Positions 28,306 through 43,221 are shown, numbered from the stretch's first letter. The stretch is DNA of 44,162 nt from Spirochaetota bacterium (GCA_050298055.1 JBNKTL010000044.1:1-44162), one strand, 5' to 3'. Numbers and translations: made by a program. Notes: a model not told the origin generated them from the letters alone.

Positions 28306-31300
28306 TTAACTCTGATATTTTTTGACTAACATCAAGCTGTTATATTCACCGGTAAATCCTGATTCAGTAAAAAGATGTCCATAATCGCTTGTACGGGCGG
28401 GTTTTCCATTGATTTTATTCACATATATTGTATGCATCTTATTAAAATCCCTGGCAAGGAGGATTTTAAAAAATCGAAGATACCGCGGAATATCTCTATC
28501 ACCGGGACCTGTTAATATCTCAACCTCTTTGCAGTTTTTCATTATTTTCATGACCAGTTTCTCCCCATGAAAAACCGTGAATGTGGAGGGAAACCGGGCC
28601 GGAAGGTACGTCTTCAGTTCATCAACTTTTATACCGCAAAGTGAAGCAGGGTCCGCGGCATTGAGCCAGAATATCCTGCCGTCATCCCTGAAATCCCGGA
28701 GAAACCTGAACCCCTCGTGGGAGATAAACTGAAGACCGGCTATCCCCCTGAAGAAATGGCCCGAGATTATCTCCCCGGAAAGCTCCATAAGCCTTAATGT
28801 CCGGAAAAGCCTGCCCCACTTCAGGGCATCCTGTTCGTAAGCAAGAAGTTCCCTGAAGAGTATACCGTATCTCGCAAAGAGCTGCCGGGCCCTCTCCCTG
28901 TTCAACTCCTCTTCCTCAATGAGGTCCCTCTCCCCTGTTTCACCCCTGAGGCCGTGCCAGTACTGGCTGACCGGCCCCTTTGAGTTCCACCTGCCGGTCA
29001 TTGCCCTCACCACACCCTTGTCCAGGTCATGTGGATTGGGATTGAATTTATTGAGAATAGCTATTCTCACCGTCTCGAAGCTGTCGCTGCTTACCCGGGA
29101 TTTCCACACGGATTTCCAGAGAAGATCCCGTGCCTCAACATGTCCCAGGCCGGTTAATTTCATAATGTCCATAAGGGTATACCGTCCCGGGATTTCAGGA
29201 AGCAAAGAATGACTGTCTTCATCTTCATCAGGATTATTTTCCACGAAGAGGTCCAGGTCTTCCTGCAGGGAAAAACCCAGTTTTTTGTTGCCGCAGCCGA
29301 ACCATGTGAGACCGGAAGTCTGCATCAGGCTGTCCAGCCATGCGGTATAGTAGGGAGTTACCCGGGCGGGTATGATATATTCCTCCCAGGCGTTTGCAGG
29401 AGCGGGATATCCGAAAAGCTTCTCAAAGCCTGACTTCAGCCCCTCCATATACCGGTCTTCACCATGGGGAGTGCAGTCCCCGTCCCGGTCCAGGGGGACA
29501 ATTCCCTGGTACGCGGCCAGGAAGAGGGGAAGCGCCGTTATTTCCCGGGCTTCAAACCGGGGCTGTCTCTCTTTCCGGGAGATGCGAATAAGAATTTCAA
29601 GGTTGTCCCCGTGACAGATCTCAGTGGCTGATTTCCTGTCACTGATCTCCCCCTCCACAATGAGGTTCTCTTCAAGGAGGGAGTCCAAAAGAGCAAGGAG
29701 TCTCTCCCGGCTCAATCCGAATATTTCCCCGGGAAACTCCGCTTCAACGGGACCGTAGAAGGAAAGAAACTGGATAAGAATCCCTTCACCTGTTCTTTCA
29801 TTGTCCGCACTTTCATCTTTCTTATAGACTGAATAAGCTTTTTCGAGCAGGCCCTCATGTTCCTTCGGATCAAGACCCTCCTCCCCGCCTATCACCCGTA
29901 TAACCGGGTCCTCCCTTTTCAGTTCGAGCCCTTCCGTAAGAAAGGGAAGCATTTCAATCGCCGCCACGGAAAAGATATCCGAACCGGGAAGTTTGACCCT
30001 CACCAGCCTCCGGGGAATGAGCCCGGAGAGGAAGTCAGGTTTTTCCCCGTGATCTCTTTCCATGGCGTTTATGAGAAGTTCCCACTCATCGGGAGGTATA
30101 AGCAACCGTTCCTTCACATGCTCAATAAGTTCTTCGGGAGACGAGGGGGAGTAGTCTTCTTCGGTCCTTCTTACCTTTCCCTGAAAGAGGTCCGTAAGAG
30201 AAGAGGAGATCCGGGGTCTCAGTTCAGGGGAACCGATTATTTTCCGGATAAGCTCCCCTGAAAGACCGGAGGCTGTTTCCGAAAAGGGCGTATCATCCTG
30301 GTACATATACTTGTCCACCTGCCGCCAGATAAGCCCCCCGGCAAAGGGCGACGGGCTGCCGGTAACGGTCTCCGTTATCTTTACTCCCCCCTCCCGGACC
30401 TCGCCAAGGAGCAGGAGAAGGTTCTTAAGATCAAACTCGTCCCTGAGACAGCTCCTCCAGGTCTCAAGGAGAATGGGAAAGTCCCTGTACTTCTTCACCG
30501 CGTCCAGAAGCTTTTTTGACCGGAGCCTGTTGAGCCAGAGGGGAAGCCTTTTCCTGAACCCTCCCCGGGGAAGAAGGAGCGCGATACCGGCATTCATCCT
30601 GAACCGCGCGCCGAAGAACCCCGTACTCTCAAGCGTCTTCCTGAGCAGTGTTTCGAGGTTCTCTTCCGTAACCATGCCGAAGATATCCTCCGTCCTGAAG
30701 CTGTGGGGAAGCATGATTAGCAGGGCATGGTTGTCCGTGAAAATCTCCAGCCGGTAACCATACTTATCCTCCCATGCCGCCCCCAGGGCCTGGGCAAAGG
30801 GAGTGTTGACCCTGCCGCCCCAGTTTGTATGGACAATGACCTGTTTTAAGTCACTCCTGTTTCCCGGGTCATCAAAATGTTCAATAACAATGTGATGCCT
30901 GTGGGGAAGCCGGGTACCTGTTGACTCAACCTGCGCCCTGAGAAAGGCAATGGTCTCCTCCGCCGCTGTTTCCCGCATATGGTACCTGTTCATGAGCATC
31001 TCCCTGTACCCGGGGTCCCCGAGATATTCATCCGCCTCTTTCAGGAAAAGGCCCGCTTTTTCCGCGAAGTGAAAGTCCCTGTTGACACCGTCGGCCTTCC
31101 AGAAGGGTATTATCCCCTGGCTGCCGGCAAAGGGGACCACCTCTACGTCATTATGCGTAATATTTGTTATCTGCCAGGTCTGCACTCCCAGGGTAAACTT
31201 CTCACCGATGGACCTCTCCCAGGTAAACTCCTCGTCAAGCTCACCGATCCTGGCCCCGGAGTCCTTTACCCTGAGCTGGAAATATCCCCTGTCCGGGATG

Positions 31301-32826
31301 GTCCCCCCCGACATATAGAGGACCATGGCCGCTCCCTTCCCTGCACTGAAGCTCCCGCTTATCATGTCCAGGATAATTCTCGGTTCAAGCTCCCTGATCC
31401 GCGTATCAGCGTACCTCCCCGCAAGCATCTTTATGACCAGGTCAAAGTGCTGCCGGTCCAGGTTCCTGTAGGGATATGAGCTCTTTATAAGGTAATAGAC
31501 AGGGTCCAGTTCCCGCCCGCCGCCGAGGGACAGGGAAACAATAACCTGGGCAAGGACGTCAAGGGGAGACTCAACGGGCCGGACCTCTTCGATATCAGCC
31601 TCTAAAACCGCCCTGGCGATCACGGCGGAATCGATAAAGTCCCTTCCATGAGTGGGATAGATAGTCCCCCGGCTTTTTTCACCCACAGAGTGGCCTGACC
31701 TCCCCATCCTCTGAAGCGCCGAAGAAATGGAAAAGGGGGCCTGCACCAGCACCACCCTGTCAAGTCTGCCGATATCGATACCCAGTTCCAGGGAGCTGGT
31801 GGCGACGATCCCTTTCAGCTCCCCCTTTTTCAGCTTCTCCTCAACAAGGAGCCTTATCTCCTTTGAGAGTGATCCGTGGTGGGAGTAAACAAGCGGTTCG
31901 CCGGCATCTTCATTGATCAGCCGCGTAACCTTCTCCGCAAGCTTCCTGCTGTTTGTGAAGAGAAGGGTGGAAGAGCTTTCCCCTATGACGTTCCGGAACT
32001 CAGTGACCAGTGACGGCCACCAGGAGTTGTCCACCAGGTTCTCCCTGGCCCCCGGGGGGAAATCAATATCAACATCGATTTCCTTTTTCATATCCGAAAC
32101 GACAATCTCCACCTCCCTCTTTTTGTAGAGGGGTTCCTCCCCGGTACGGACCATTTCAAATCCCCCGATAAATTCCGCGGCTGTTTCCCGGGGAGTTATG
32201 GTGGCCGAGAGTGCGATCCGCTGGAACTCGCCGGTATATTCAACCAGCCGGTCAACGGCGGTTATCATGTGAGTGCCCCGTTTGGTTCCCAGAATTGAGT
32301 GGATCTCGTCCATGATGACGGCCCTGACACCTTTCAGCATGCGGATACTGTTGGAGGAGCTGAGGATGAGATTAAGACTTTCCGGGGTTGTGATAAGTAT
32401 TTCAGGGGGCGATTTGAGCATCCGCCTTCTGTCTGCTGCCGGTGTGTCGCCGCTCCGAGTAAGGATATTTATTTCGGGAAAGACCTCACCCGATTCCCGG
32501 AAAAGCCTGCTGATCTTCTCTACGGGTCCCAGGAGGTTTTTCCGGATATCGTTGTTCAGGGCCTTCAGGGGTGAGATGTAGAGCACACGGACGCTCCCGG
32601 TGTCCCACCGGGAAATGATCAGCTGGTTGAGGGCCCAGAGGAATGCCGCAAGTGTTTTGCCGCATCCTGTTGGCGCGGTGATCAGAAGGTGTTTCTCTTC
32701 CGCGGCGGCAGGCCAGGTTTTCAGCTGGATATCCGTGGGTTCACCCACCTCTTCCCGGAACCACCGGGCAATAAGGGGATGGAAGATGCCGGGGAGAGAT
32801 TTATTTTCACTGTTATTTATCATCAT
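28306..32826 (-). CDS. lhr: Lhr-family DEAD/DEAH helicase with long C-terminal region
   Basis: APTGCGKT, SPLKAL, TTPESL, DEIH, SAT, HHGSLS, SSLELGIDIG, QRMGRSGH, GGTIPD, RYG...E, AADPA. Confidence 0.93.
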   Translation of the reverse strand: MMINNSENKSLPGIFHPLIARWFREEVGEPTDIQLKTWPAAAEEKHLLITAPTGCGKTLAAFLWALNQLIISRWDTGSVRVLYISPLKALNNDIRKNLLGPVEKISRLFRESGEVFPEINILTRSGDTPAADRRRMLKSPPEILITTPESLNLILSSSNSIRMLKGVRAVIMDEIHSILGTKRGTHMITAVDRLVEYTGEFQRIALSATITPRETAAEFIGGFEMVRTGEEPLYKKREVEIVVSDMKKEIDVDIDFPPGARENLVDNSWWPSLVTEFRNVIGESSSTLLFTNSRKLAEKVTRLINEDAGEPLVYSHHGSLSKEIRLLVEEKLKKGELKGIVATSSLELGIDIGRLDRVVLVQAPFSISSALQRMGRSGHSVGEKSRGTIYPTHGRDFIDSAVIARAVLEADIEEVRPVESPLDVLAQVIVSLSLGGGRELDPVYYLIKSSYPYRNLDRQHFDLVIKMLAGRYADTRIRELEPRIILDMISGSFSAGKGAAMVLYMSGGTIPDRGYFQLRVKDSGARIGELDEEFTWERSIGEKFTLGVQTWQITNITHNDVEVVPFAGSQGIIPFWKADGVNRDFHFAEKAGLFLKEADEYLGDPGYREMLMNRYHMRETAAEETIAFLRAQVESTGTRLPHRHHIVIEHFDDPGNRSDLKQVIVHTNWGGRVNTPFAQALGAAWEDKYGYRLEIFTDNHALLIMLPHSFRTEDIFGMVTEENLETLLRKTLESTGFFGARFRMNAGIALLLPRGGFRKRLPLWLNRLRSKKLLDAVKKYRDFPILLETWRSCLRDEFDLKNLLLLLGEVREGGVKITETVTGSPSPFAGGLIWRQVDKYMYQDDTPFSETASGLSGELIRKIIGSPELRPRISSSLTDLFQGKVRRTEEDYSPSSPEELIEHVKERLLIPPDEWELLINAMERDHGEKPDFLSGLIPRRLVRVKLPGSDIFSVAAIEMLPFLTEGLELKREDPVIRVIGGEEGLDPKEHEGLLEKAYSVYKKDESADNERTGEGILIQFLSFYGPVEAEFPGEIFGLSRERLLALLDSLLEENLIVEGEISDRKSATEICHGDNLEILIRISRKERQPRFEAREITALPLFLAAYQGIVPLDRDGDCTPHGEDRYMEGLKSGFEKLFGYPAPANAWEEYIIPARVTPYYTAWLDSLMQTSGLTWFGCGNKKLGFSLQEDLDLFVENNPDEDEDSHSLLPEIPGRYTLMDIMKLTGLGHVEARDLLWKSVWKSRVSSDSFETVRIAILNKFNPNPHDLDKGVVRAMTGRWNSKGPVSQYWHGLRGETGERDLIEEEELNRERARQLFARYGILFRELLAYEQDALKWGRLFRTLRLMELSGEIISGHFFRGIAGLQFISHEGFRFLRDFRDDGRIFWLNAADPASLCGIKVDELKTYLPARFPSTFTVFHGEKLVMKIMKNCKEVEILTGPGDRDIPRYLRFFKILLARDFNKMHTIYVNKINGKPARTSDYGHLFTESGFTGEYNSLMLVKKYQS

Positions 32827-33136: not shown

Positions 33137-33343
33137 CTATATCTTTTTAAACTCATCCTCAGTTATTCCGGCCTGCTTTAAAATTTTCCTGAAAGTTCCA
33201 GTTGGGATATCACCGGGATGCATTGCAATATAAGTTTGTCGTCCATCGGGATGCCTGAGTATTTTATGGGACCCTGATTGTCTTTTTTCTCTAAAACCGA
33301 TCTTTTTCAATTTAGTGAATACTTCACGCGCTGAGTATGGCAT
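33137..33343 (-). CDS. hicA: HicA-family mRNA interferase toxin
   Basis: GF...RQSGSH...HP..IPTGT..ILKQAG signature. Confidence 0.92.
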
Positions 33344-33569
33344 CGTCTATTTCAACTTCGGAATAATAAACTTCGGTTTCTCGTTGGATATTCTCATTAT
33401 TCTCCTTTTTTTCTTCAATCCATAATTCTATGAGATCTTTTGCAGCCTTTTTAGCACCTTCAATCCCCAAACCATGAGTTGTAAGATCTAAAGCAGGTAC
33501 ATGCGCATAAAAATATTCATCCGGCAGGGAACCATCTGTTATTCTTTCAATAATAATAGAATATCTCAT
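33324..33569 (-). CDS. hicB: HicB-family antitoxin (short, no DNA-binding domain)
   Basis: YSIIIE..AHVPAL..THG..EGA..A..LI partial RNase H fold; overlaps hicA. Confidence 0.88.
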
Positions 33570-34023: not shown

Positions 34024-35004
34024 ATGACCGATAAAACACAAAAACCCATCGCAATGATCCTCGCAGGTTACAACAAGATCAGCAAGCGGGCGCGGAAAAA
34101 AATGCTCAGGGAGATCAAGGAAGAATATGACGGGGAAGAGATCTACATGGGAGAGAACAAATTCCTTTACAAGCTCGCAGGGAAACCGATAATTCAGTAT
34201 GTTCTGGATGCGGTATACAATGCAAAGAAAAACGGGAAGAAGCTCTATGACGAAATATATATCTATAATGATGTAAAAAGCTTTAAAGAACAGATCGATC
34301 TCTCAAGCTACCCCGGAGTCCATATCAAACAGATGAAGGATTCCATCGGGGGACACTGGAAGGACTTTTACTTCAATCACCTCGACTACGGACAGAGAGT
34401 AGATGTCTTCTTCGGGGACACACCGAGGATCCAGCCGGAAGATGTTGAATTTGTCCATAACGATTACGGAAAAGTCCTTATGACAACAGATCCATACCGA
34501 AACCTGCCTATTTATATCATCTTCGGCATTGTCGCCTTTGATGACATTAAGGACAACTGGCTCCCTCACAGGATTAAATACGTAAAGAGAGGGCCCAACA
34601 GGGGAAAACTGAAGAGCTTCGCGTGCTTTGAAGACTTCCAGGCCAGGGTGGGAAACAGCGGCACCATGATAAAACGGAAGGAAACAGACGAACTCATAGA
34701 CTCGGAAGCCTGCAATCTCTTCTATAACGTGAGAAAAATTCTCACGCCCACGTCATTCTCAAAGGTCATGTATTACCTCTGGAAAAATAAACATATGAAG
34801 GTCATTGGCCAGATAAAAAGAAGGTCCATAAAAATCCAGGACTACTATAACGCTCTTTTTGATGTTACTTCACGGCTTTTCAGGATTGACCTCTCCCGGA
34901 TGGGAGGGATTATGCATATCATCAAAAAAAACGCGGCACGGTGGGAAAACGATATTGACGGCCCCAGGGATTTTGAGCTCATCCAGAAGAAGTTTACAGG
35001 ATGA
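34024..35004 (+). CDS. NTP-transferase (MobA/GT-A-like) fold protein
   Basis: MILAG, NKFLYKLAGKPIIQYVLDA, FGDTP, NDIDGPRDF motifs. Confidence 0.7.
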   Translation: MTDKTQKPIAMILAGYNKISKRARKKMLREIKEEYDGEEIYMGENKFLYKLAGKPIIQYVLDAVYNAKKNGKKLYDEIYIYNDVKSFKEQIDLSSYPGVHIKQMKDSIGGHWKDFYFNHLDYGQRVDVFFGDTPRIQPEDVEFVHNDYGKVLMTTDPYRNLPIYIIFGIVAFDDIKDNWLPHRIKYVKRGPNRGKLKSFACFEDFQARVGNSGTMIKRKETDELIDSEACNLFYNVRKILTPTSFSKVMYYLWKNKHMKVIGQIKRRSIKIQDYYNALFDVTSRLFRIDLSRMGGIMHIIKKNAARWENDIDGPRDFELIQKKFTG

Positions 35005-35086: not shown

Positions 35087-35186
35087 TTACTCCTCAGCTA
35101 TGTCAAAATAAACATGAATAAATAATCTGTTCTCCTCGACGGGGACAGATTGCTGGTATTTTATTAATATATTTTAGCCGTACAGC
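35087..35186 (+). repeat. copy D (degenerate) of the palindromic element
   Basis: TIR-like ttactcctcagctatg, shortened hairpin aatctgttctcctcgacggggacagatt (35124-35151), then ttgctggtattttattaa matching ttgttgatattttagtaa of copy C. Confidence 0.6.
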
Positions 35187-35241: not shown

Positions 35242-36312
35242 ATGAAATGCCCTGAGTGCGGAAATGCGTTAAAACGAGAAAACAGAGAGAGCATGAGATG
35301 TACATGCGGATACACCTTTATCATCGATCCAAAAACAAGCGGTTTCACCGATACATTATTGTACAAAGCAGTAAAGGTCGCGTCAAAAGATAACGAGTTT
35401 TTTGTCACGCCAAACCAGGTCTATTCCGCCTTTATACAAATATATCTCAGAATGAACCGCCGTCTCTACATCCGGAGCCTGATAATATACCTGGCGGTCA
35501 TTCTACTCATGTCTGCAGGATACTATGGCTTAAAGATAAGAGCAATGCCTGTCTATTTTTTTATTTTTTCTATTATTCTCATGCTCCGTCTCCTGATAAA
35601 GGTCCTCAAACAAAAACCGCCCCCATCAGAACAGAAAATGAATGAATGGGTAAAAGCTTTCGGAAGAAAGAAGCTTGGCAAGGCTCTTATCACCGTCCCG
35701 GTTCTGAAAAATCCGCCCCCCCAGTGGAAAGAACCTGACATCTATAACTACGGATTCGAGAAGATCCTTGTTGTCCGGAGGGACATCCTGGTTGACCTGT
35801 TTGTAAAAAACAATTTTCATGCCGATGAGCGAACGATTATTATCTCAGCGGGTGGATATCCCGGATACCTGAAAGCACATGTCTCAAAGATGCTCAATGA
35901 CAGCCCCCACATGCCGGTGTACTATCTCCATGATTCTTCAGATGATGAACGGGAGAACATAAAGAATATGCTGCTCACCCTGGGTATTACCGCTGAAAAC
36001 CGGCGGGTTATTGACCTGGGCCTCAGTAAAGAAATAGCAGGAAAATTAACATTCGCAAAAAAGGTCTATAAAGAAAACCAGGTAATTCCTGTTGACAGTT
36101 TTCCCTACTGGGTCCTTACGAAGATCATACTCCAGGCCTTCGGCCGCACAACAGAAGAACTTATCGAAAAGGCCCGGGGAAGGGACCGGGAACAGGGGGC
36201 CGATGCCCTGGCGGTTGCGGGTATCGGCTTTCTGTATATTGCTTCAAGCTACTGGAGTGACGGTTCATGGAGTTCTCATTCATTCGAGGACTCTGACCTC
36301 TCCTTCGGTTGA
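35242..36312 (+). CDS. hypothetical membrane protein: Zn ribbon + 2 TM + possible Toprim-like domain
   Basis: CPEC..CTC, two TMs, KILVV...GGYP...VYYLHD pattern; GAAGGTG RBS. Confidence 0.75.
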   Translation: MKCPECGNALKRENRESMRCTCGYTFIIDPKTSGFTDTLLYKAVKVASKDNEFFVTPNQVYSAFIQIYLRMNRRLYIRSLIIYLAVILLMSAGYYGLKIRAMPVYFFIFSIILMLRLLIKVLKQKPPPSEQKMNEWVKAFGRKKLGKALITVPVLKNPPPQWKEPDIYNYGFEKILVVRRDILVDLFVKNNFHADERTIIISAGGYPGYLKAHVSKMLNDSPHMPVYYLHDSSDDERENIKNMLLTLGITAENRRVIDLGLSKEIAGKLTFAKKVYKENQVIPVDSFPYWVLTKIILQAFGRTTEELIEKARGRDREQGADALAVAGIGFLYIASSYWSDGSWSSHSFEDSDLSFG

Positions 36313-36316
36313 TACC

Positions 36317-38056
36317 ATGACGGCACTTTTCGGTTTTACAGGCCCCCCGGACCAGGACCAGCTTGTCCGCATGAAAAATTCTCTCTATCACCGCGCAGGG
36401 AAAAATCCCCTGCTCTATTCAAACCACATGATATCAATCGGCTGTTCGGCCCCTATGCCTGCGAAAACAGGACATCTCTCCGGCACAGTAAAGGTCAAAG
36501 AGTCATTTCTCGCGCTGGCAGGATATATTACGGACCCCCGGGGGAAGATCACGACCCTGGAACAGCTGCTGTCACAGATCGAACAAAATGGATTTGAGAT
36601 TTTTTCCCGGCTTAACGGCAATTTCATCTGTGCCCTCCACGACGGTTCAACCTTAACCCTGGTGCGGGACATGCCGGGCATTCGCAGTATCTACTTCGGC
36701 ATGCACCGGGACCGGTTCATCTTTTCAGTGGAACCGAAGGGTATCTGCTCTTACGCAGGTTTTCCCAGACGGCTCCGGCCGGCATCTCTGGCCCAGTATC
36801 TCTCATTCAGTTTTGTGGCGGGAAGAGAAACCATGTTTCATGATATTGAGGCCGTGCCCCCCGGGCACATTCTGCGGTACAAAGACGGCTGCACCCCCGT
36901 GATAGAACCTTATTGCGATCTCTTCGCCCAGTCATTTGAAGAAGCCGATGACATGGATACCTGGAGCCGGAGATTTGTTACCGCGTTCCGCGAATCCATA
37001 CGGGAACGGCTCCCGGAATCCGGCCCGGTGGGGATCTTCCTCTCAGGAGGACTTGACTCCAGTATCGTCACTGCGGAGATCACCCGGATGTACAGGGGAC
37101 CGGTGAAGACCTGGTCAATACATTTCGGCAGGGAATACAATAATGAACTGGAGTTTGCATCAGCCGTTGCCGGGATGTGCGGGACCGATCACCGGGAAGT
37201 ATTGATAGACCCGAAACAGTTCCTTCCCCGGATCCGTGAAATGGTCTGGCATCTTGACGAGCCCATCGGCGACCCCATCACGACCCCGAACTTTGAACTG
37301 GCCCGCATTGTGTCCCGGGAAGTCGACTCCATTTTCAACGGTGAAGGGGGAGACCCCTGTTTCGGAGGGCCTAAAAACCTCTACATGCTCCTGAAACACT
37401 GGTATGGAGGAGTGGAGAACGGCCCCCGGTTCAGGGAACGCATTTACTGTTCATCTTTTAAAAGGGCCTATGAGGACATGGATGATATTCTCACACCGGA
37501 ATTCCGCCGGTCAATCTCCCTGGAGAGTGACCTCTATGATACGCTGACTCCCTTTTTCGACACACACCGGCCCGAAGGCTTTCTGGACAAGCTCATGGTC
37601 ATGAATATACGGCTGAAGGGGGCAAACCTTATACTGCCGAAAGTCGAACGGATGCTCAGCGCATGGGGAATAAATTCACTGTCACCTCTTTTCGACTGGC
37701 GAATTGTACAGCTCAGCCTGGCCATGCCGTCCCATTTTAAAGTCCACAGGGGAGAGGAGAAAGTCCTCTTTAAACATGCCTACAGGGACCTTCTGCCCCG
37801 GGAAGTCCTGGTGAGGCCTAAAAGCGGCATGCGGGTACCGGTACATTTCTGGTTCCAGGGCGACATGAAAAAATATGTTCGGAAGATTCTTAATAAAAAA
37901 GAATTGAAAAAAGCAGGCATCTTTAACTATGAATATATAAAACAGTTGATAGAGTACAGCACCGGCAACAGGTACAGCAGGTATGGGCTGAAGCTCTGGA
38001 TGCTCATCACCTTTGAAATATGGCGCCGGATTTTTATTGAAGGGGAACCGGTATAA
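36317..38056 (+). CDS. asparagine synthetase B-like amidoligase
   Basis: LNGNF, RD..G, LSGGLDSS PP-loop, DEPIGD, GEGGD, KVER, RPKSG. ATG at 36317 lies 4 nt after the upstream stop; the 36092 start in the ORF track overlaps the previous gene. Confidence 0.9.
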   Translation: MTALFGFTGPPDQDQLVRMKNSLYHRAGKNPLLYSNHMISIGCSAPMPAKTGHLSGTVKVKESFLALAGYITDPRGKITTLEQLLSQIEQNGFEIFSRLNGNFICALHDGSTLTLVRDMPGIRSIYFGMHRDRFIFSVEPKGICSYAGFPRRLRPASLAQYLSFSFVAGRETMFHDIEAVPPGHILRYKDGCTPVIEPYCDLFAQSFEEADDMDTWSRRFVTAFRESIRERLPESGPVGIFLSGGLDSSIVTAEITRMYRGPVKTWSIHFGREYNNELEFASAVAGMCGTDHREVLIDPKQFLPRIREMVWHLDEPIGDPITTPNFELARIVSREVDSIFNGEGGDPCFGGPKNLYMLLKHWYGGVENGPRFRERIYCSSFKRAYEDMDDILTPEFRRSISLESDLYDTLTPFFDTHRPEGFLDKLMVMNIRLKGANLILPKVERMLSAWGINSLSPLFDWRIVQLSLAMPSHFKVHRGEEKVLFKHAYRDLLPREVLVRPKSGMRVPVHFWFQGDMKKYVRKILNKKELKKAGIFNYEYIKQLIEYSTGNRYSRYGLKLWMLITFEIWRRIFIEGEPV

Positions 38057-38070
38057 CCAGGAGGATCTAT

Positions 38071-39480
38071 ATGAATGTTCTATCAAGTACTCAGGGTGTT
38101 CTCACCATTTCTTCATACACTGCTCTCATCTATATTATTACCTGGGGTTTTGCCAGGGGATACGGAAAGACCAAGCTCCAGTTCCTGCTGGCTGAACGAA
38201 AAGTGGGTGTGTGGGCGTCCGCCTTTTCAATTGCGGCCACGTGGGTCTGGGCACCGGCACTTTTTATCGCGTCCCAAAAAGCATACCTGCACGGCATTGC
38301 CGGGGTTTTCTGGTTTACCGTACCCAATGTTGCCTGCCTGGTCATCTTTGCCTATTTTGCGCAGCGCATCAGGAACATCATGCCCCATGGGTTTACCCTT
38401 TCAGGTTTTATCAGGACCCGCTACTCACGGCGCGTCCAGGTCATGTATCTCATTGAACTCCTGGGCCTGGCCACCTGTTCCTTTGCCGTGCAGCTTCTGG
38501 CCGGGGCAAAAATTCTGTCCTTGGTGACCGGTTTCTCTTTTTCCGGAATTACAATTCTCATGGCCGGTATTGCCGTTGTCTATTCCCTTATGTACGGCTT
38601 GAAGGCCTCAGTGGTGACGGATTATTTTCAGATGGTACTCATAATTCTCGTCGGAGGATTTCTCGTCATCTGGTCCGTGTCCCGGTCCGGAGGAGCAGAG
38701 TCCATAGCGGCCGGTCTTGGCGGTTTAAGCGGGAAATACGGCAGTCTCTTTTCAAAGGAGAGCCTGGATCTTGCCCTCACCTTCGGGGTCCCGGTAACCA
38801 TCGGCCTGCTGGCCGGTCCCTTCGGAGACCAGTCCTTCTGGCAGCGGGCCTTCGCCACGGAAAAAGATTCCGTGAAAAGCGCCTTTATCCGCGGCGCCTT
38901 TATCTTTGCCCTGGTTCCCGTTCTCCTGTCACTCCTGGGATTTATTGCCGCGGGGACCGGAATGGCAGTTAAAGACCCTGCACTGGTAAACCTCGAAGCG
39001 GTTATAAAATTTCTGCCCTCGTGGACCATTATTCCCTTTATCTTTGTACTCATGTCCGGCCTGATATCCACACTTGACTCAAACCTCTGCGCTATTTCAT
39101 CACTTGCGGGGCATGACATTTCAGATGAATCATCAGACAGTTCCGAATCACCCCCGATCTCACGGTGGAGCATGGTATCCGTTTCCGTTGTTGCGGTTCT
39201 CATCGCCAATATCCCCGACCTGAAAATCGTACATCTCTTTCTTTTTTACGGGACACTCCGCGCGTCAACACTTCTTCCCACAGTCATGACCATACTCGGC
39301 ATGGAACTGTCGGAAAAGGGGTTATTCTGGGGAATACTCATATCACTGGTCATAGGACTTCCCCTCTTTTCCTATGGGAAAATGACCAGTAATACGGCCC
39401 TCATAATAGCCGGGTCCCTCTTTACGGTGCTGGCATCGGGAATCACAGCGGTATTATGGAAAATGAAGAGTGAAAGTTGA
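38071..39480 (+). CDS. sodium:solute symporter family (DUR3/urea-amine-like)
   Basis: About 13 TMs; SIAATWVWAPAL, GLKASVVTDYFQ, DQSFWQR, STLDS motifs; AGGAGG RBS. Confidence 0.88.
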   Translation: MNVLSSTQGVLTISSYTALIYIITWGFARGYGKTKLQFLLAERKVGVWASAFSIAATWVWAPALFIASQKAYLHGIAGVFWFTVPNVACLVIFAYFAQRIRNIMPHGFTLSGFIRTRYSRRVQVMYLIELLGLATCSFAVQLLAGAKILSLVTGFSFSGITILMAGIAVVYSLMYGLKASVVTDYFQMVLIILVGGFLVIWSVSRSGGAESIAAGLGGLSGKYGSLFSKESLDLALTFGVPVTIGLLAGPFGDQSFWQRAFATEKDSVKSAFIRGAFIFALVPVLLSLLGFIAAGTGMAVKDPALVNLEAVIKFLPSWTIIPFIFVLMSGLISTLDSNLCAISSLAGHDISDESSDSSESPPISRWSMVSVSVVAVLIANIPDLKIVHLFLFYGTLRASTLLPTVMTILGMELSEKGLFWGILISLVIGLPLFSYGKMTSNTALIIAGSLFTVLASGITAVLWKMKSES

Positions 39481-39559: not shown

Positions 39560-40342
39560 GTGACCATCGTGGCGCATAAAACTATTTCTTTAACCTGTCC
39601 CAATTGCGGAGCCGGATTCAACAATGCCGCGCCTGATAATCCCAATGACAGTTTTATTACCTGTCCCTACTGCAAAACAGCATTGCAATTTAAGCCCACA
39701 ACGACCTACACTCAGCAGGACAGCGATATGACTATCAAAATAGAGGATACAGACTGGATTGTTGTCCCCAGAGGAGTCTTGAGCAGCAAAGCGAAAAAAG
39801 TATCCGCCATATTACTGGTCTTTACAGCAGCCCTCATTTTTGTCCTGGTTGAAATAACCCGAGAGGGTTCAATTTATAATTCGGGGAAAACAGCGGAAAA
39901 AAAGAACGGGCTCTCTGTTACTTCAGAGAATTTTCCCCTTGTGTATTCCGGGGAAAAGAAATTCATCCTGAAAAATAAAAAGCTTGTCTCCAATCATAAA
40001 GCCATAGAAGTCAGGGACAGATGCACCCTTGAACTCTATAATGTCACCATCCATTCCAATAATCATATTGCCATCAGGACCCGCGGGAATGCCACGGTCA
40101 TCATTAAAAGCTCGAAAATCTCGGGAAAATACCGGGCAATGGTGTCAACAGGTTCCTCAAGGATTAAAATTGTCAATTCAACTTTCACCAGCCCCGATAC
40201 TGCCATTGTTGCCCGGGAACAGGCAGAGGTCAGTATTATGGGATCAACCATTGCAGGGAGACGTTTTTCATATATCACGAAAAACTCCGGGAAAGTCGAG
40301 GTGAAAAACTCAAATATCAAAGGGAGAATATTGAAGAAATGA
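39560..40342 (+). CDS. Zn-ribbon + TM + beta-helix-like hypothetical protein
   Basis: CPNC/CPYC, one TM, C-terminal repeats of the AI......I.I..S.I type. Confidence 0.75.
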   Translation: MTIVAHKTISLTCPNCGAGFNNAAPDNPNDSFITCPYCKTALQFKPTTTYTQQDSDMTIKIEDTDWIVVPRGVLSSKAKKVSAILLVFTAALIFVLVEITREGSIYNSGKTAEKKNGLSVTSENFPLVYSGEKKFILKNKKLVSNHKAIEVRDRCTLELYNVTIHSNNHIAIRTRGNATVIIKSSKISGKYRAMVSTGSSRIKIVNSTFTSPDTAIVAREQAEVSIMGSTIAGRRFSYITKNSGKVEVKNSNIKGRILKK

Positions 40343-40365: not shown

Positions 40366-40435
40366 ATAACCCGCAACCCATATCTCACAACTCGCAACTT
40401 GTAACATGTAACACGTAACTTGCAACTTGTAACTT
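40366..40435. repeat. heptamer tandem array x10 (consensus RYAACYY)
   Basis: ataaccc gcaaccc atatctc acaactc gcaactt gtaacat gtaacac gtaactt gcaactt gtaactt. Confidence 0.85.
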
Positions 40436-40602: not shown

Positions 40603-41985
40603 ATGAACAGGATGCTTAAAGTTATATCAGCGGCAATTATACTCGTTTCCAGTCCAGTACTGTTATATGCTGAAGAAGCTGCTGAAGCTGTTACCTATAA
40701 GACCCCGGCGATAGATTTTCTCTGGATGTGTCTGGCAGCATTCCTCGTTTTCTTTATGCAGCCGGGATTTGCGCTTGTAGAAACCGGTTTCACACGGGCA
40801 AAGAATGCAGGTAACATTATCATGAAAAACCTTATGGACTTCTCTGTGGGGTCAATAGCGTTTTTTATCATAGGATACGGCCTCATGTATGGCGATTCAA
40901 TCGGAGCATTTATCGGAGGCTCAAACTTTTTTCTCAGTGACGCTACACCGGCACTTCCCAAGGCAGTCAAAGGTGTCGTTGATAACAGCGGCATGTTTGT
41001 TTACGCGCAGTGGATTTTCCAGGCGGTTTTCGCGGCAACAGCCGCCACAATCGTTTCGGGAGGCATGGCCGAAAGAACAAAGTTTACCTCATACCTGATC
41101 TTCAGCCTTATCATATCGGCTTTTATCTACCCGATATCAGGTCACTGGATCTGGCAGGGCAGCGGATGGCTTACCAAGCTCGGCTTTCAGGATTTCGCCG
41201 GTTCCACAGTTGTTCATTCCGTTGGAGGATGGGCGGCACTCATGGGCGCATGGTTTCTGGGACCGCGGATAGGCAAGTACAACGGTGACGGCAAACCAAA
41301 AGCCATACCGGGACACAATATACCGCTGGCCGCGCTGGGTGTTTTCATCCTCTGGTTCGGATGGTTCGGGTTTAACCCGGGAAGTACGCTGACTGCATCC
41401 GGACGGGACGGTTTCTCCATGGCATTCATCGCGGTCAATACATCCCTTGCAGCCGCAGCGGGAGCAGTAGCCGCAATGGTCACCATATGGATATCTTCCG
41501 GAAAACCTGACGTCAGTATGAGCCTCAACGGCGCCCTGGCCGGGCTTGTGGGAATAACAGCGGGCTGTGCTTTTGTTTCACCGTCCAGCGCTATCCTCAT
41601 CGGTCTTATTTCAGGAGTGATCGTTGTGTTTTCCGTTAAGTTTATTGACTTTGTCCTTAAGGTAGACGATCCCGTTGGTGCCGTTTCGGTTCACGGCGTT
41701 TGCGGTGCCGTGGGAACACTCCTTGTGGGAGTTTTCGCAGACACCAATTACGGCGGCGGAATGAACGGTCTTCTCAACGGCGGCGGTTTTAAACTGCTGG
41801 GCGTTCAGGCAATCGGTGTTTTTGCCGTACTGGGATGGACAGTTGTGACATCAGGGGTCCTCTTCTTTGTTCTCAAGAAGACCATCGGTCTCAGGGTAAG
41901 CAGAGAAGAAGAACTGAGAGGCCTGGATATCGAAGAGCATGGAATGGAGTCATATTCCGGGTTCCAGATCTTCAGGACACAGTAG
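40603..41985 (+). CDS. amtB: ammonium transporter
   Basis: [57 protein letters not shown]; signal peptide; AGGAGG RBS. Confidence 0.97.
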
Positions 41986-41995
41986 GGGGTATATG

Positions 41996-42337
41996 ATGAA
42001 ACTTATAATAGCATATATACAGCCTGAGAAACTGGAAGACGTAAAACAGGAGCTGCAGAAAAACAATGTGGCAAAACTCTCCGTCACAAACTCACTGGGA
42101 TGCGGCCAGCAGGGCGGCTACCATGAAGTCTACAGGGGGGTTGATATAGACGTTAATCTTCTTCAGAAGGTCAGGGTTGAGATCGCGGTCAACGAAGAAT
42201 TTGTTGATACGACAATTAAGGCCATTATTACCGGGGCAAAAACAGGAAATATCGGTGACGGCAAAATTTTTGTTGTAAATCTTGAAAAATGTATTAGAAT
42301 ACGGACCGAAGAAGAAGGAAAAGACGCAATTGGATAA
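41996..42337 (+). CDS. glnK: P-II nitrogen regulatory protein
   Basis: [14 protein letters not shown]-loop G.G.Q...[18 protein letters not shown]; adjacent to amtB. Confidence 0.93.
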
Positions 42338-42429
42338 AAAAACAGACCTGAGGGGAAAGCGGTTATTCGACCGGCTTTCCCCCCGGCCTGAATATAATAA
42401 TTAAATTATCAAAACAAATGGAGGACACA

Positions 42430-43221
42430 ATGAAACAAATTGCAAGAACTTTCCTGGCAATTGTATTTTTAACAGCAGCAGTAAATTCATACGCACAGGA
42501 AGCGGGAACCACTGAATCTAAAGCGGACCCCATGGGACTCTCCTTTGGAGTCGATTATATGAGCACCTACCTCTGGAGAGGCGGATACTGGTTTAATGGA
42601 GACGGGGCTTTCTTTCCTTCTGTCTCATTTGAGAAGGCCGGTTTTTCAATAGGCTACGCGGGAGAATACAGCGAAGACGCCTGGACAGGGAAAGACACAG
42701 ACGTGGTAAATCCCGGTATTGAAAAAAAACACGCGGCTGACTTCGGCATCGGTTATTCTTATTCAGTTGAAAAACTGGTAACAATCGGCGCAAGTGTCTG
42801 GTATTACTACTTCTATAATGAAGATGCCAATACATTCTATACAGGGACTGTATCATTAGCGCTGGACCTGCTGCCGCTCACACCAACAATTGCCTATAAC
42901 CACGACTACTATACCGATTCAAAGGAAAAGAAAGACTACTATATAACACTGGGATTAAGTAAAAGTATTGAAGCAAAGAGCGGGGAAATCAGCCTGGGAG
43001 TGACAGCCGGATATTACAACTGTGTTTCAGGTGATACGGAATTAAAAGGTATCAGCGATGTAACGGCATCCCTGGGAGCAAGCACAACCGTAGGCGCTGT
43101 GACCCTTTCCGGAAGCTTTAACTGGGTCTATGTTCCCAGCGAGGATTATTATGTACGCGAAGATGGTTCAGATGATAAGAACAGAACATACGCCACCTTC
43201 GGCGCTTCATATTCACTGTAA
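42430..43221 (+). CDS. TorF/Gcw_chp-like outer-membrane beta-barrel
   Basis: Signal peptide, STYLWRG motif, alternating beta strands, C-terminal GASYSL; this family is often found beside amtB-glnK. Confidence 0.75.
   Translation: MKQIARTFLAIVFLTAAVNSYAQEAGTTESKADPMGLSFGVDYMSTYLWRGGYWFNGDGAFFPSVSFEKAGFSIGYAGEYSEDAWTGKDTDVVNPGIEKKHAADFGIGYSYSVEKLVTIGASVWYYYFYNEDANTFYTGTVSLALDLLPLTPTIAYNHDYYTDSKEKKDYYITLGLSKSIEAKSGEISLGVTAGYYNCVSGDTELKGISDVTASLGASTTVGAVTLSGSFNWVYVPSEDYYVREDGSDDKNRTYATFGASYSL

Follow-up and report, generated by a model that had tools for sequence, protein, structure and literature searches.

What does an enzyme with the fold of asparagine synthetase B (AsnB) ligate once it has lost the cysteine with which such enzymes split glutamine? 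The question is raised by a 44,162-nucleotide (nt) stretch of DNA from a Spirochaetota bacterium (GCA_050298055.1 JBNKTL010000044.1:1-44162), hereafter the window, in which three co-oriented genes separated by 4 and 14 nt encode a protein with a Zn ribbon, transmembrane (TM) helices and a Toprim-like domain (gene 1), a Cys-less AsnB-like ligase, and a sodium:solute symporter (SSS) family transporter (Table 1). The original prediction, which described this arrangement correctly, was that the ligase might attach an imported amine or ammonia to the acidic tail of gene 1 or to another acceptor. We find that the system is real, conserved, and previously uncharacterised, that its conserved unit is the pair of gene 1 and ligase, and that the transporter is a variable third member. 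The best reading, which we favor only tentatively, is an ATP-dependent capping of the terminal Gly of gene 1 with a small nucleophile, here called X.

Scanning with the gene 1 alignment, one genome per species, gave 59 loci, mostly from Planctomycetota, Myxococcota, and Verrucomicrobiota. The ligase gene is downstream of gene 1 in 46 of these loci, whereas SSS is present in only 6, with a bicupin gene upstream instead in 37 (by neighbor clustering). Anchoring the scan on the ligase gave the same picture, with an open reading frame (ORF) ending in [FYW]G just upstream in 48 of the 54 loci that have at least 500 nt of upstream sequence (34 of 40 clusters at 70% identity), where chance would give 0.028 such ORFs per upstream interval. 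The linkage is far beyond chance. Among the six misses (L252, L262, L281, L282, L288, and L291), L288 has its tailed gene downstream of the ligase on the opposite strand. In five of six tested genomes with a tailed gene but no adjoining ligase, an orthologue is encoded elsewhere (E ≤ 1e-230). As a separate observation, the ligase-family gene at L281:5737-12955 is convergent with a dndC/dndD cluster, in a locus without an FG-tailed gene.

Gene 1 ends in SFEDSDLSFG, within a tail (residues 317-356) that is disordered in a structural model with a mean pLDDT of 84.6. Its homologues form 1237 clusters at E ≤ 0.001, and among the best 150 representatives, on which tails were scored, 137 end in [FY]G and 2 in GE. 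The residues preceding this dipeptide vary; neither Asp nor Glu is present in the last six positions of 64 of 144 [FY]G tails, which disfavors a tail Asp or Ser side chain as acceptor. Since the acidity of the tail is not conserved, the terminal Gly carboxylate is favored over an Asp side chain. A median of 42 residues follow Asp285, the last conserved Asp, and the tail would thus be long enough to reach the ligase site. The neighborhood search bears out one part of the original prediction, the linkage of gene 1 to the ligase and the conserved FG end, and contradicts another, the gene trio as a unit and the acidic, Ser-rich character of the tail. A form of gene 1 in the paralogous cassette L242, apparently without the Zn ribbon/TM part, still ends in GFG. 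Four related Polyangiaceae homologues (L053, L056, L058, and L059, counted as one event) are tail-less and are found behind a flavin monooxygenase gene and beside chemotaxis-like genes; a search of their genomes, which are incomplete, gave no ligase orthologue. They represent a separate use of the gene 1 fold.

The strongest evidence for the tail is its relocation to an unrelated protein in one lineage. In this second architecture, the Toprim-like homologues, often present in two or three copies, end without a tail, and the tail is carried instead by a protein of ~170 residues that belongs to no Pfam family and has FG in frame in 12 of 14 cases (one of the exceptions ends in CFD and the other appears frameshifted). 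Atlas clusters of this small protein are mostly from Actinomycetota.

The rest of gene 1 is also conserved. In its alignment (A3, which omits 13 of the 150 representatives and P0014), Cys20 and Cys22 of the Zn ribbon are present in 146 of 149 rows, and Cys3 and Cys6 in 133, the remaining rows having gaps. A fold search placed Topo VI-A and a small Toprim protein first, although weakly (Foldseek E 0.03-0.07), and superposition on VIA is a weak match as well (Z 8.6, rmsd 4.6, 143 aligned residues). The Pfam match to TOP6A-Spo11 Toprim is under the cut-off in gene 1 (21.7 vs 24.1 bits) and over it in the homologue from L004 (32.1 bits). The catalytic Toprim motif consists of a metal-binding Glu plus DxD. 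Since this pattern is lost, with Arg179 at the Glu position (Glu in 73 of 149 rows) and H230-D231-(A/S)-(T/S) in the alignment at the DxD position, nuclease activity of gene 1 is unsupported.

The ligase begins with MTALFG and has the motifs SGGLDSS (243-249) and NGEGGDP (341-347), as originally described. A hidden Met-Cys start was looked for and rejected: in frame, the ORF can be extended to TTG 36092, inside gene 1, but this extension offers no Met-Cys start. The N-terminal Cys is absent in 41 of 41 full-length ligases (that of the window, P0001, and 40 locus proteins of at least 540 residues), whose aligned start is M-x-A-[LI]-F-G or similar. According to the accessible part of PMC6748925, glutamine-hydrolysing AsnB requires the N-terminal nucleophile Cys1 and binds glutamine through a network of Arg-48, Asn-74, Gly-75, Glu-76, plus Asp-96. 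The motifs that correspond to this network (RLSI, NGEI, and SDTE) are found in both AsnB paralogues of the host genome and are absent from the window ligase, and the glutaminase Asn position is Ala, Ser, Cys, or Val across the family. With Cys1 and the other glutaminase motifs lost family-wide, the enzyme is not a glutamine-dependent asparagine synthetase, as had been predicted.

The synthetase half is kept in its nucleotide-binding part. It matches Pfam Asn_synthase (E 9e-69), although the protein is under every NCBIfam cut-off (for TIGR01536, 213.3 vs 267.1 bits, with 244.4 bits for the L004 homologue). The PP-loop residues S243, G244, G245, and S248 are kept in 40 of 40 rows, and D247 of the same loop and the catalytic E343 and D346 of the synthetase site in 39. 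Glu343 and Asp346 align with Glu-364 and Asp-367 of human asparagine synthetase (ASNS), which its mutants show to be needed (PMC6748925, accessible part), and a kept RPK motif aligns with RQK of E. coli AsnB (1CT9). The substrate side is altered, with ASNS Glu-368 replaced by Pro347, E. coli Tyr357 by Pro352, Arg-403 by Lys442, and Asp-400 by Ile439 (the last placed by ungapped offset from the aligned Arg-403). These replacements, which argue against asparagine synthesis, are near invariant (Pro347, Ile439, and Lys442 in 40 of 40 rows and Pro352 in 39). A 356-residue PP-loop protein consisting of a synthetase domain only follows the ligase or cupin gene in two marine loci (L284:4778-5845 and L308:4464-5531).

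Does the ligase bind gene 1? When the ligase was co-folded with residues 146-356 of gene 1, the complex scored 0.88, compared with 0.00 for the best of three controls; runs agreed in at least 67% of contacts, and the pLDDT of the partner was at least 66. This mark was reached by 116 of 157 solved pairs and 2 of 215 mismatched pairs, a calibration that applies only roughly here, where we used our own alignments. The interface pairs gene 1 residues 154-173 (the most conserved segment of the family) and 188-199 with ligase residues 352-366, 420-425, 472-480, and 501, which adjoin the motifs GGPKN and RPK. Docking is thus predicted to involve gene 1 residues 154-199, at the mouth of the synthetase site.

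The variable third position is filled by one gene or the other. Cupin and SSS are never found together in the 59 gene 1 loci (37 vs 6) nor in 80 metagenome loci of an independent ligase-anchored scan (25 cupin, 5 SSS, 0 both), several of which duplicate loci of the first set. In genome-wide searches of incomplete assemblies, with a positive control that worked, no cupin was found in five of five SSS genomes or in the host genome, and no SSS in four of four cupin genomes. Two genomes are counter-cases. G060 has an unlinked SSS orthologue plus a distant second cupin subfamily (E 5e-16) and no supply gene near its gene 1–ligase pair, and G062 has neither SSS nor cupin. The SSS orthologue of G060 (L243:7732-9210) is situated between a chromate-transporter-like gene and a response regulator.

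The same exchange is seen in phages. The window SSS matches a phage family at E 5e-129, and we compared the best 80 of 106 viral SSS loci plus one phage record (81 in all) with the best 80 of 143 viral cupin loci. Of the 81 SSS loci, 80 encode a PAPS_reduct-type protein and 78 encode ParB_N; the corresponding numbers for the 80 cupin loci are 75 and 78. None of the 161 loci has SSS and cupin together, and neither ligase nor gene 1 was found in any. Among the matches listed, the typical order is ParB, cupin or SSS, PP-loop/DUF3440, ParB, and terminase, a cassette that we take to be IbrA/IbrB-like. Among annotated phages and plasmids, a single SSS record was found, all other matches being distant. 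On trees made with FastTree only, the SSS/cupin label changes three times on the IbrA-like tree (51 dereplicated proteins), all forced by starred branches, and four times on the ligase tree, two of them forced by such branches. Since SSS and bicupin repeatedly interchange beside two different adenylating enzymes, they are probably two routes to one nucleophile X, and the bacterial ligase system and the phage cassette likely share one substrate. In nine viral loci (L155, L163, L165, L181, L188, L190, L192, L198, and L207), the gene for a short PP-loop protein precedes that for a free-standing class II glutaminase of the MCG type, and the two together are a split amidotransferase; in 58 SSS-type viral loci, the short PP-loop protein is without glutaminase.

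A literature search, covering few subscription journals and no supplements, found no description of the module or of the cupin/SSS swap, nor are they mentioned in the accessible parts of PMC2922099 and PMC7824862. PADLOC profiles (2023 library) matched none of the three window proteins (P0001-P0003), the cupin, or the small FG protein.

What X might be is best approached through the transporter. It belongs to PF00474 (SSF; E 9e-22, 77.9 bits vs a gathering threshold of 22.8) and is below the TIGR00813 cut-off. Its nearest solved relatives are DUR3 (E 1e-30 to 5e-29) and choline-transporter-like proteins, DUR3 being the closest, in keeping with its originally noted DUR3-like motifs. We mapped onto it the urea-site residues of DUR3, as given in the accessible part of PMC11840088. 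W93, W95, D312, and P342 are kept as W58, W60, D253, and P283, the TM1 WxW and TM6 Asp (W58, W60, and D253) in 23 of 23 SSS rows. T98, Y117, Q124, N305, Y315, and Y461 are replaced by A63, F82, C89, L246, F256, and F390 (A63 being Ser in 3 and C89 Thr in 1 of these rows), W338 by F279, and E402 by N338, and there are additional invariant residues (N86, Q141, Y393, and R397). Since the six polar urea ligands of DUR3 are all apolar in the window SSS, X is probably not urea, which the likeness to urea/polyamine carriers had brought into play. The pattern of residues suggests that aromatic side chains cage a small amine or zwitterion, perhaps one that has an anionic end; candidates such as taurine-like or N-methylated amino compounds are guesswork.

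The bicupin has eight invariant residues (H134, H136, H174, H189, H201, R140, C104, and C119), and its His-rich site has Arg at the usual Glu position. Attempts to name its reaction by sequence and fold searches of the PDB returned only generic bicupins with tied scores; the nearest named Atlas family, ureidoglycine aminohydrolase (at 0.87), is a lead only. A COX1-family protein is encoded in 31 of 31 cupin genomes tested (of 37 loci) vs 3 of 6 SSS genomes, in a comparison limited by the relatedness of the genomes and by the presence of NO reductases in the family, and none was found in the host genome. This pattern weakly fits an O2-dependent cupin. A second bicupin subfamily (YVNGCST...HHIH...HPMF) is found at L238:1489-2220, L239:1480-2367, and L284:1107-2084, the last divergent from gene 1 and ligase.

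How might these parts work together? In the mechanism that we propose, the ligase, having lost its glutamine-splitting site, would dock on the gene 1 product, a membrane-anchored protein, at its cytoplasmic domain, adenylate the carboxylate of that protein's terminal Gly by acyl-adenylate chemistry, and join it to X, probably an amine, to give an amide. SSS would import X, the bicupin would make what SSS imports, and phage IbrA-like PP-loop enzymes would use the same X, probably on DNA. AsnB-fold enzymes that act on peptide C termini via adenylation are known (PMC13060819, accessible part). The broader proposition, that capping of C-terminal Gly with a bicupin-made or imported metabolite is widespread and that hundreds of phages modify their DNA with the same metabolite, is possible but doubtful.

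Several observations weigh against capping of the terminal Gly. The ligases of L031, L252, L281, L282, and L291 have no upstream gene ending in [FYW]G, and many loci, including most of the second architecture, have neither cupin nor SSS nearby. The tail is not among the confident contacts of the complex model. The bicupin fold matches several bicupins equally and points to no single reaction. Finally, a Glu-Tyr dyad, proposed to activate the substrate carboxylate, is common to all five enzymes compared in the accessible part of PMC13060819 (AsnB, TsrC, ScdTA, AsnO, and PesC). Its positions are Pro347 and Pro352 in our ligase (mapped via E. coli AsnB rather than PesC), and its pocket is, judging by alignment, remodeled relative to that of the dyad enzymes. 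The dyad is not universal, however, and the Pro pair is not fatal, because CarA, which still adenylates a carboxylate, has Leu at the Glu position after its GxGxD motif.

The alternative that survives best, although we consider it unlikely, is that the FG tail serves for docking or activation and that the ligase joins X to another carboxylate, such as that of a metabolite or of an envelope or lipid precursor near the membrane. The tail left out of the active site in the model and the altered carboxylate-recognition dyad would fit, a TPR lipoprotein encoded between gene 1 and ligase in 20 of 59 loci hints at the envelope, and the AsnB-like LtsA and Bacillus subtilis AsnB amidate peptidoglycan precursors. 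Yet residues 154-199 already explain docking, the terminal Gly is nonetheless kept and even relocated, and no small-molecule or envelope acceptor enzyme is conserved in the neighborhoods.

Three further alternatives to capping of gene 1 with an amine are each improbable. Gene 1 could be an amino-group carrier on which X is loaded transiently, modified, and released, as with LysW, which has Zn-binding Cys residues and to whose short, conserved C-terminal motif an amine is ligated (PMC10433800, accessible part). Gene 1 likewise combines a Zn ribbon with a conserved terminus, and the marine L284 and L308 add a second PP-loop enzyme, but no modifying enzyme or release peptidase is conserved in the 59 neighborhoods. 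The terminus is also Gly rather than Glu, and the ligase has the AsnB fold, whereas LysX is an ATP-grasp enzyme.

A nucleophile based on sulfur rather than an amine, such as a thiol or a compound that would leave the terminal Gly as a thioester or thiocarboxylate, is no more probable than the carrier. It would follow the logic of ThiS and MoaD, where activation of a terminal Gly precedes sulfur transfer. The phage partner enzyme weakly matches the PADLOC profiles of DndC, BrxP, and SspD, and the cupin, besides its His-rich site with Arg and its two invariant Cys, has the sulfonamide synthase SbzM among its tied single-domain fold matches (Z 12.1). Against it, DUR3 and choline-transporter-like proteins are the solved transporters nearest to the SSS, the neighborhoods conserve neither a cysteine desulfurase nor a rhodanese, and AsnB-fold enzymes of known function use nitrogen nucleophiles (PMC13060819, accessible part).

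Free ammonia, with SSS or cupin supplying its precursor, has an equally small chance of being what amidates (or nitrilates) the tail. Asparagine synthetase-like enzymes can take ammonia instead of glutamine (PMC13060819, accessible part), ureidoglycine aminohydrolase and YlbA are among the top folds for the bicupin (Z 17-18, tied with other folds), and amtB is found ~1.1 kb downstream in the window. An importer and a precursor-releasing enzyme would be expected together, yet they are mutually exclusive, and no Amt cluster is among the conserved neighbors. The cupin is, moreover, unlikely to be a mere ammonia source because a class II glutaminase that bears its Cys is separately encoded in the nine cupin-type phage loci. 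An ammonia-dependent asparagine synthetase beside unrelated genes is barely credible since, for all its Asn_synthase match and an AsnA not found in the genome, the ligase is below the TIGR01536 cut-off, has lost the aspartate-binding Glu-368 and Asp-400/Arg-403, is strongly linked to an FG-tailed protein, and shares the host genome with GatB and two canonical AsnB paralogues of the MCG type.

The system also differs from those that it most resembles. The ligase shares with AsnB (1CT9, human ASNS) the two-domain fold and the nucleotide-binding residues and differs in the lost glutaminase motifs, the replaced substrate-side residues, and a dedicated partner protein. With TsrC, ScdTA, and PesC it shares the AsnB fold, a putative action on a ribosomal C-terminal carboxylate via adenylation (PMC13060819, accessible part), and a candidate ribosomal substrate with a conserved C terminus encoded alongside. 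PesC uses glutamine or ammonia, according to the same source, and these enzymes act on a short precursor peptide, whereas our ligase has no glutaminase site, has Pro-Pro for the dyad, is linked to a supply gene, and has a proposed acceptor of 170-390 residues. For the lasso cyclases, its profile scores are far below cut-off (NF033535, 112 vs 525; NF033561, 55 vs 300), and no lasso-type precursor peptide or leader peptidase is conserved among neighboring ORFs of at least 90 codons. Beta-lactam synthetase, CarA, and lasso cyclases form amides with the AsnB fold and without use of a glutaminase, and CarA lacks the Glu after GxGxD just as our ligase does, but all three cyclise within one molecule, unlike what we propose here.

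The likeness to LysW/LysX is one of layout, in which a partner enzyme ligates an amine to the short, conserved C-terminal motif of a Zn-binding protein (PMC10433800, accessible part). In LysW, the terminus is EDWGE and the acceptor is the gamma-carboxyl of Glu, whereas the gene 1 family lacks this motif and has a terminal Gly, a membrane anchor, an AsnB-fold ligase, and no downstream pathway enzymes. The SSS retains the aromatic frame and Asp312 of DUR3, its best structural-sequence match, but not the polar urea ligands, and has gained the invariant R397. The IbrA/IbrB-like phage cassette has the same SSS subfamily or bicupin in one slot beside a PP-loop enzyme, but that enzyme is another one, with ParB partners and a terminase context. 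Judged on its residues and motifs, the system falls outside the definitions of AsnB, the TsrC/PesC type, lasso cyclases, LysW, and DUR3. By analogy, the ligase may work like asparagine synthetase-like C-terminal amidases, in a layout like that of LysW/LysX; the fold and chemistry are known, and the ligase itself is not previously described.

Table 1. Positions in the window of the three genes, their main motifs, and a possible fourth gene
Feature	Position	Strand	Description
Gene 1	35242..36312	+	356 aa; Zn ribbon at the N terminus, then two TM helices, a Toprim-like domain, and a disordered tail that ends in Phe-Gly
Ligase	36317..38056	+	579 aa; Cys-less AsnB-fold ATP-pyrophosphatase; glutaminase domain degenerate, synthetase nucleotide-binding motifs kept
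SSS transporter	38071..39480	+	469 aa; DUR3-related sodium:solute symporter family protein
Gene 1 CxxC...CxC Zn ribbon	35242..35307	+	Residues 1-22
Gene 1 TM helices, two predicted	35461..35586	+	By hydropathy; residues about 74-115
Gene 1 conserved segment (EPDIYxYG)	35701..35760	+	Residues 154-173; predicted main ligase contact
Gene 1 terminal Phe355-Gly356 and stop	36304..36312	+	[FY]G end typical of homologues
Ligase PP-loop SGGLDSS	37043..37063	+	Residues 243-249
Ligase signature NGEGGDPxFGGPKN	37337..37378	+	Residues 341-354; Glu343/Asp346 kept; Pro at AsnB Glu/Tyr dyad positions
Possible fourth gene	39560..40342	+	Zn ribbon, TM, beta-helix; syntenic only in closest cassette L244

One contig from a sequencing run that may be the source of the window spans it fully without differences, and contig pieces from two further runs in that study, which cover parts of it, have a few substitutions and leave the three genes free of indels. 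The host genome is 4.7 Mb in size and 98% complete. Searches of 40 relatives and of 300 genomes of the phylum, with at most four candidates scored per genome, gave no orthologue of the ligase, and the cassette is therefore patchy and probably mobile. The possible fourth gene, which has a distant paralogue on contig C59, shares 45% identity with its positional counterpart in L244 and may have travelled with the cassette; since its synteny is limited to L244, it is probably not a core member.

Further out, an ordinary nitrogen-uptake cluster at 40603-43221 (+), with amtB, a P-II (glnK-like) gene, and a weakly matching TorF-like outer-membrane protein gene, was not seen among the conserved neighbors of the system. 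Upstream, 34024-35004 (+) encodes a protein with a MobA/GlmU-like nucleotidyltransferase fold, far under all cut-offs and without homologue in the searched loci. On the other strand are a 1506-residue ORF at 28306-32826 (-), which we take to be a Lhr-like helicase, and a small ORF at 33324-33569 (-), presumably HicB-like, without Pfam or NCBIfam match. Short AT-rich stretches at 35140-35175 and 40394-40428 also match unrelated contigs, and there is a 12-pair hairpin at 35123-35152. An Rfam search for a riboswitch clue, run on the window and seven loci, gave no match, and promoter and terminator scans were near chance level.

A practical consequence of these findings is that annotation as asparagine synthetase should be avoided for proteins that carry the GGDPxFGGPKN signature. 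If the tail is indeed the acceptor, the system would be a new kind of C-terminal protein capping, in which an AsnB-fold enzyme uses an outside nucleophile in place of glutamine, and the ligase could serve as a tool for C-terminal labeling with a short tag. Being soluble, the bicupin lends itself to in vitro assay, and SSS, ligase, and phage IbrA-like enzymes are all predicted to use its product as substrate. If the metabolite is shared, knowing what this product is would explain both systems at once and would probably bring a new DNA modification to light.

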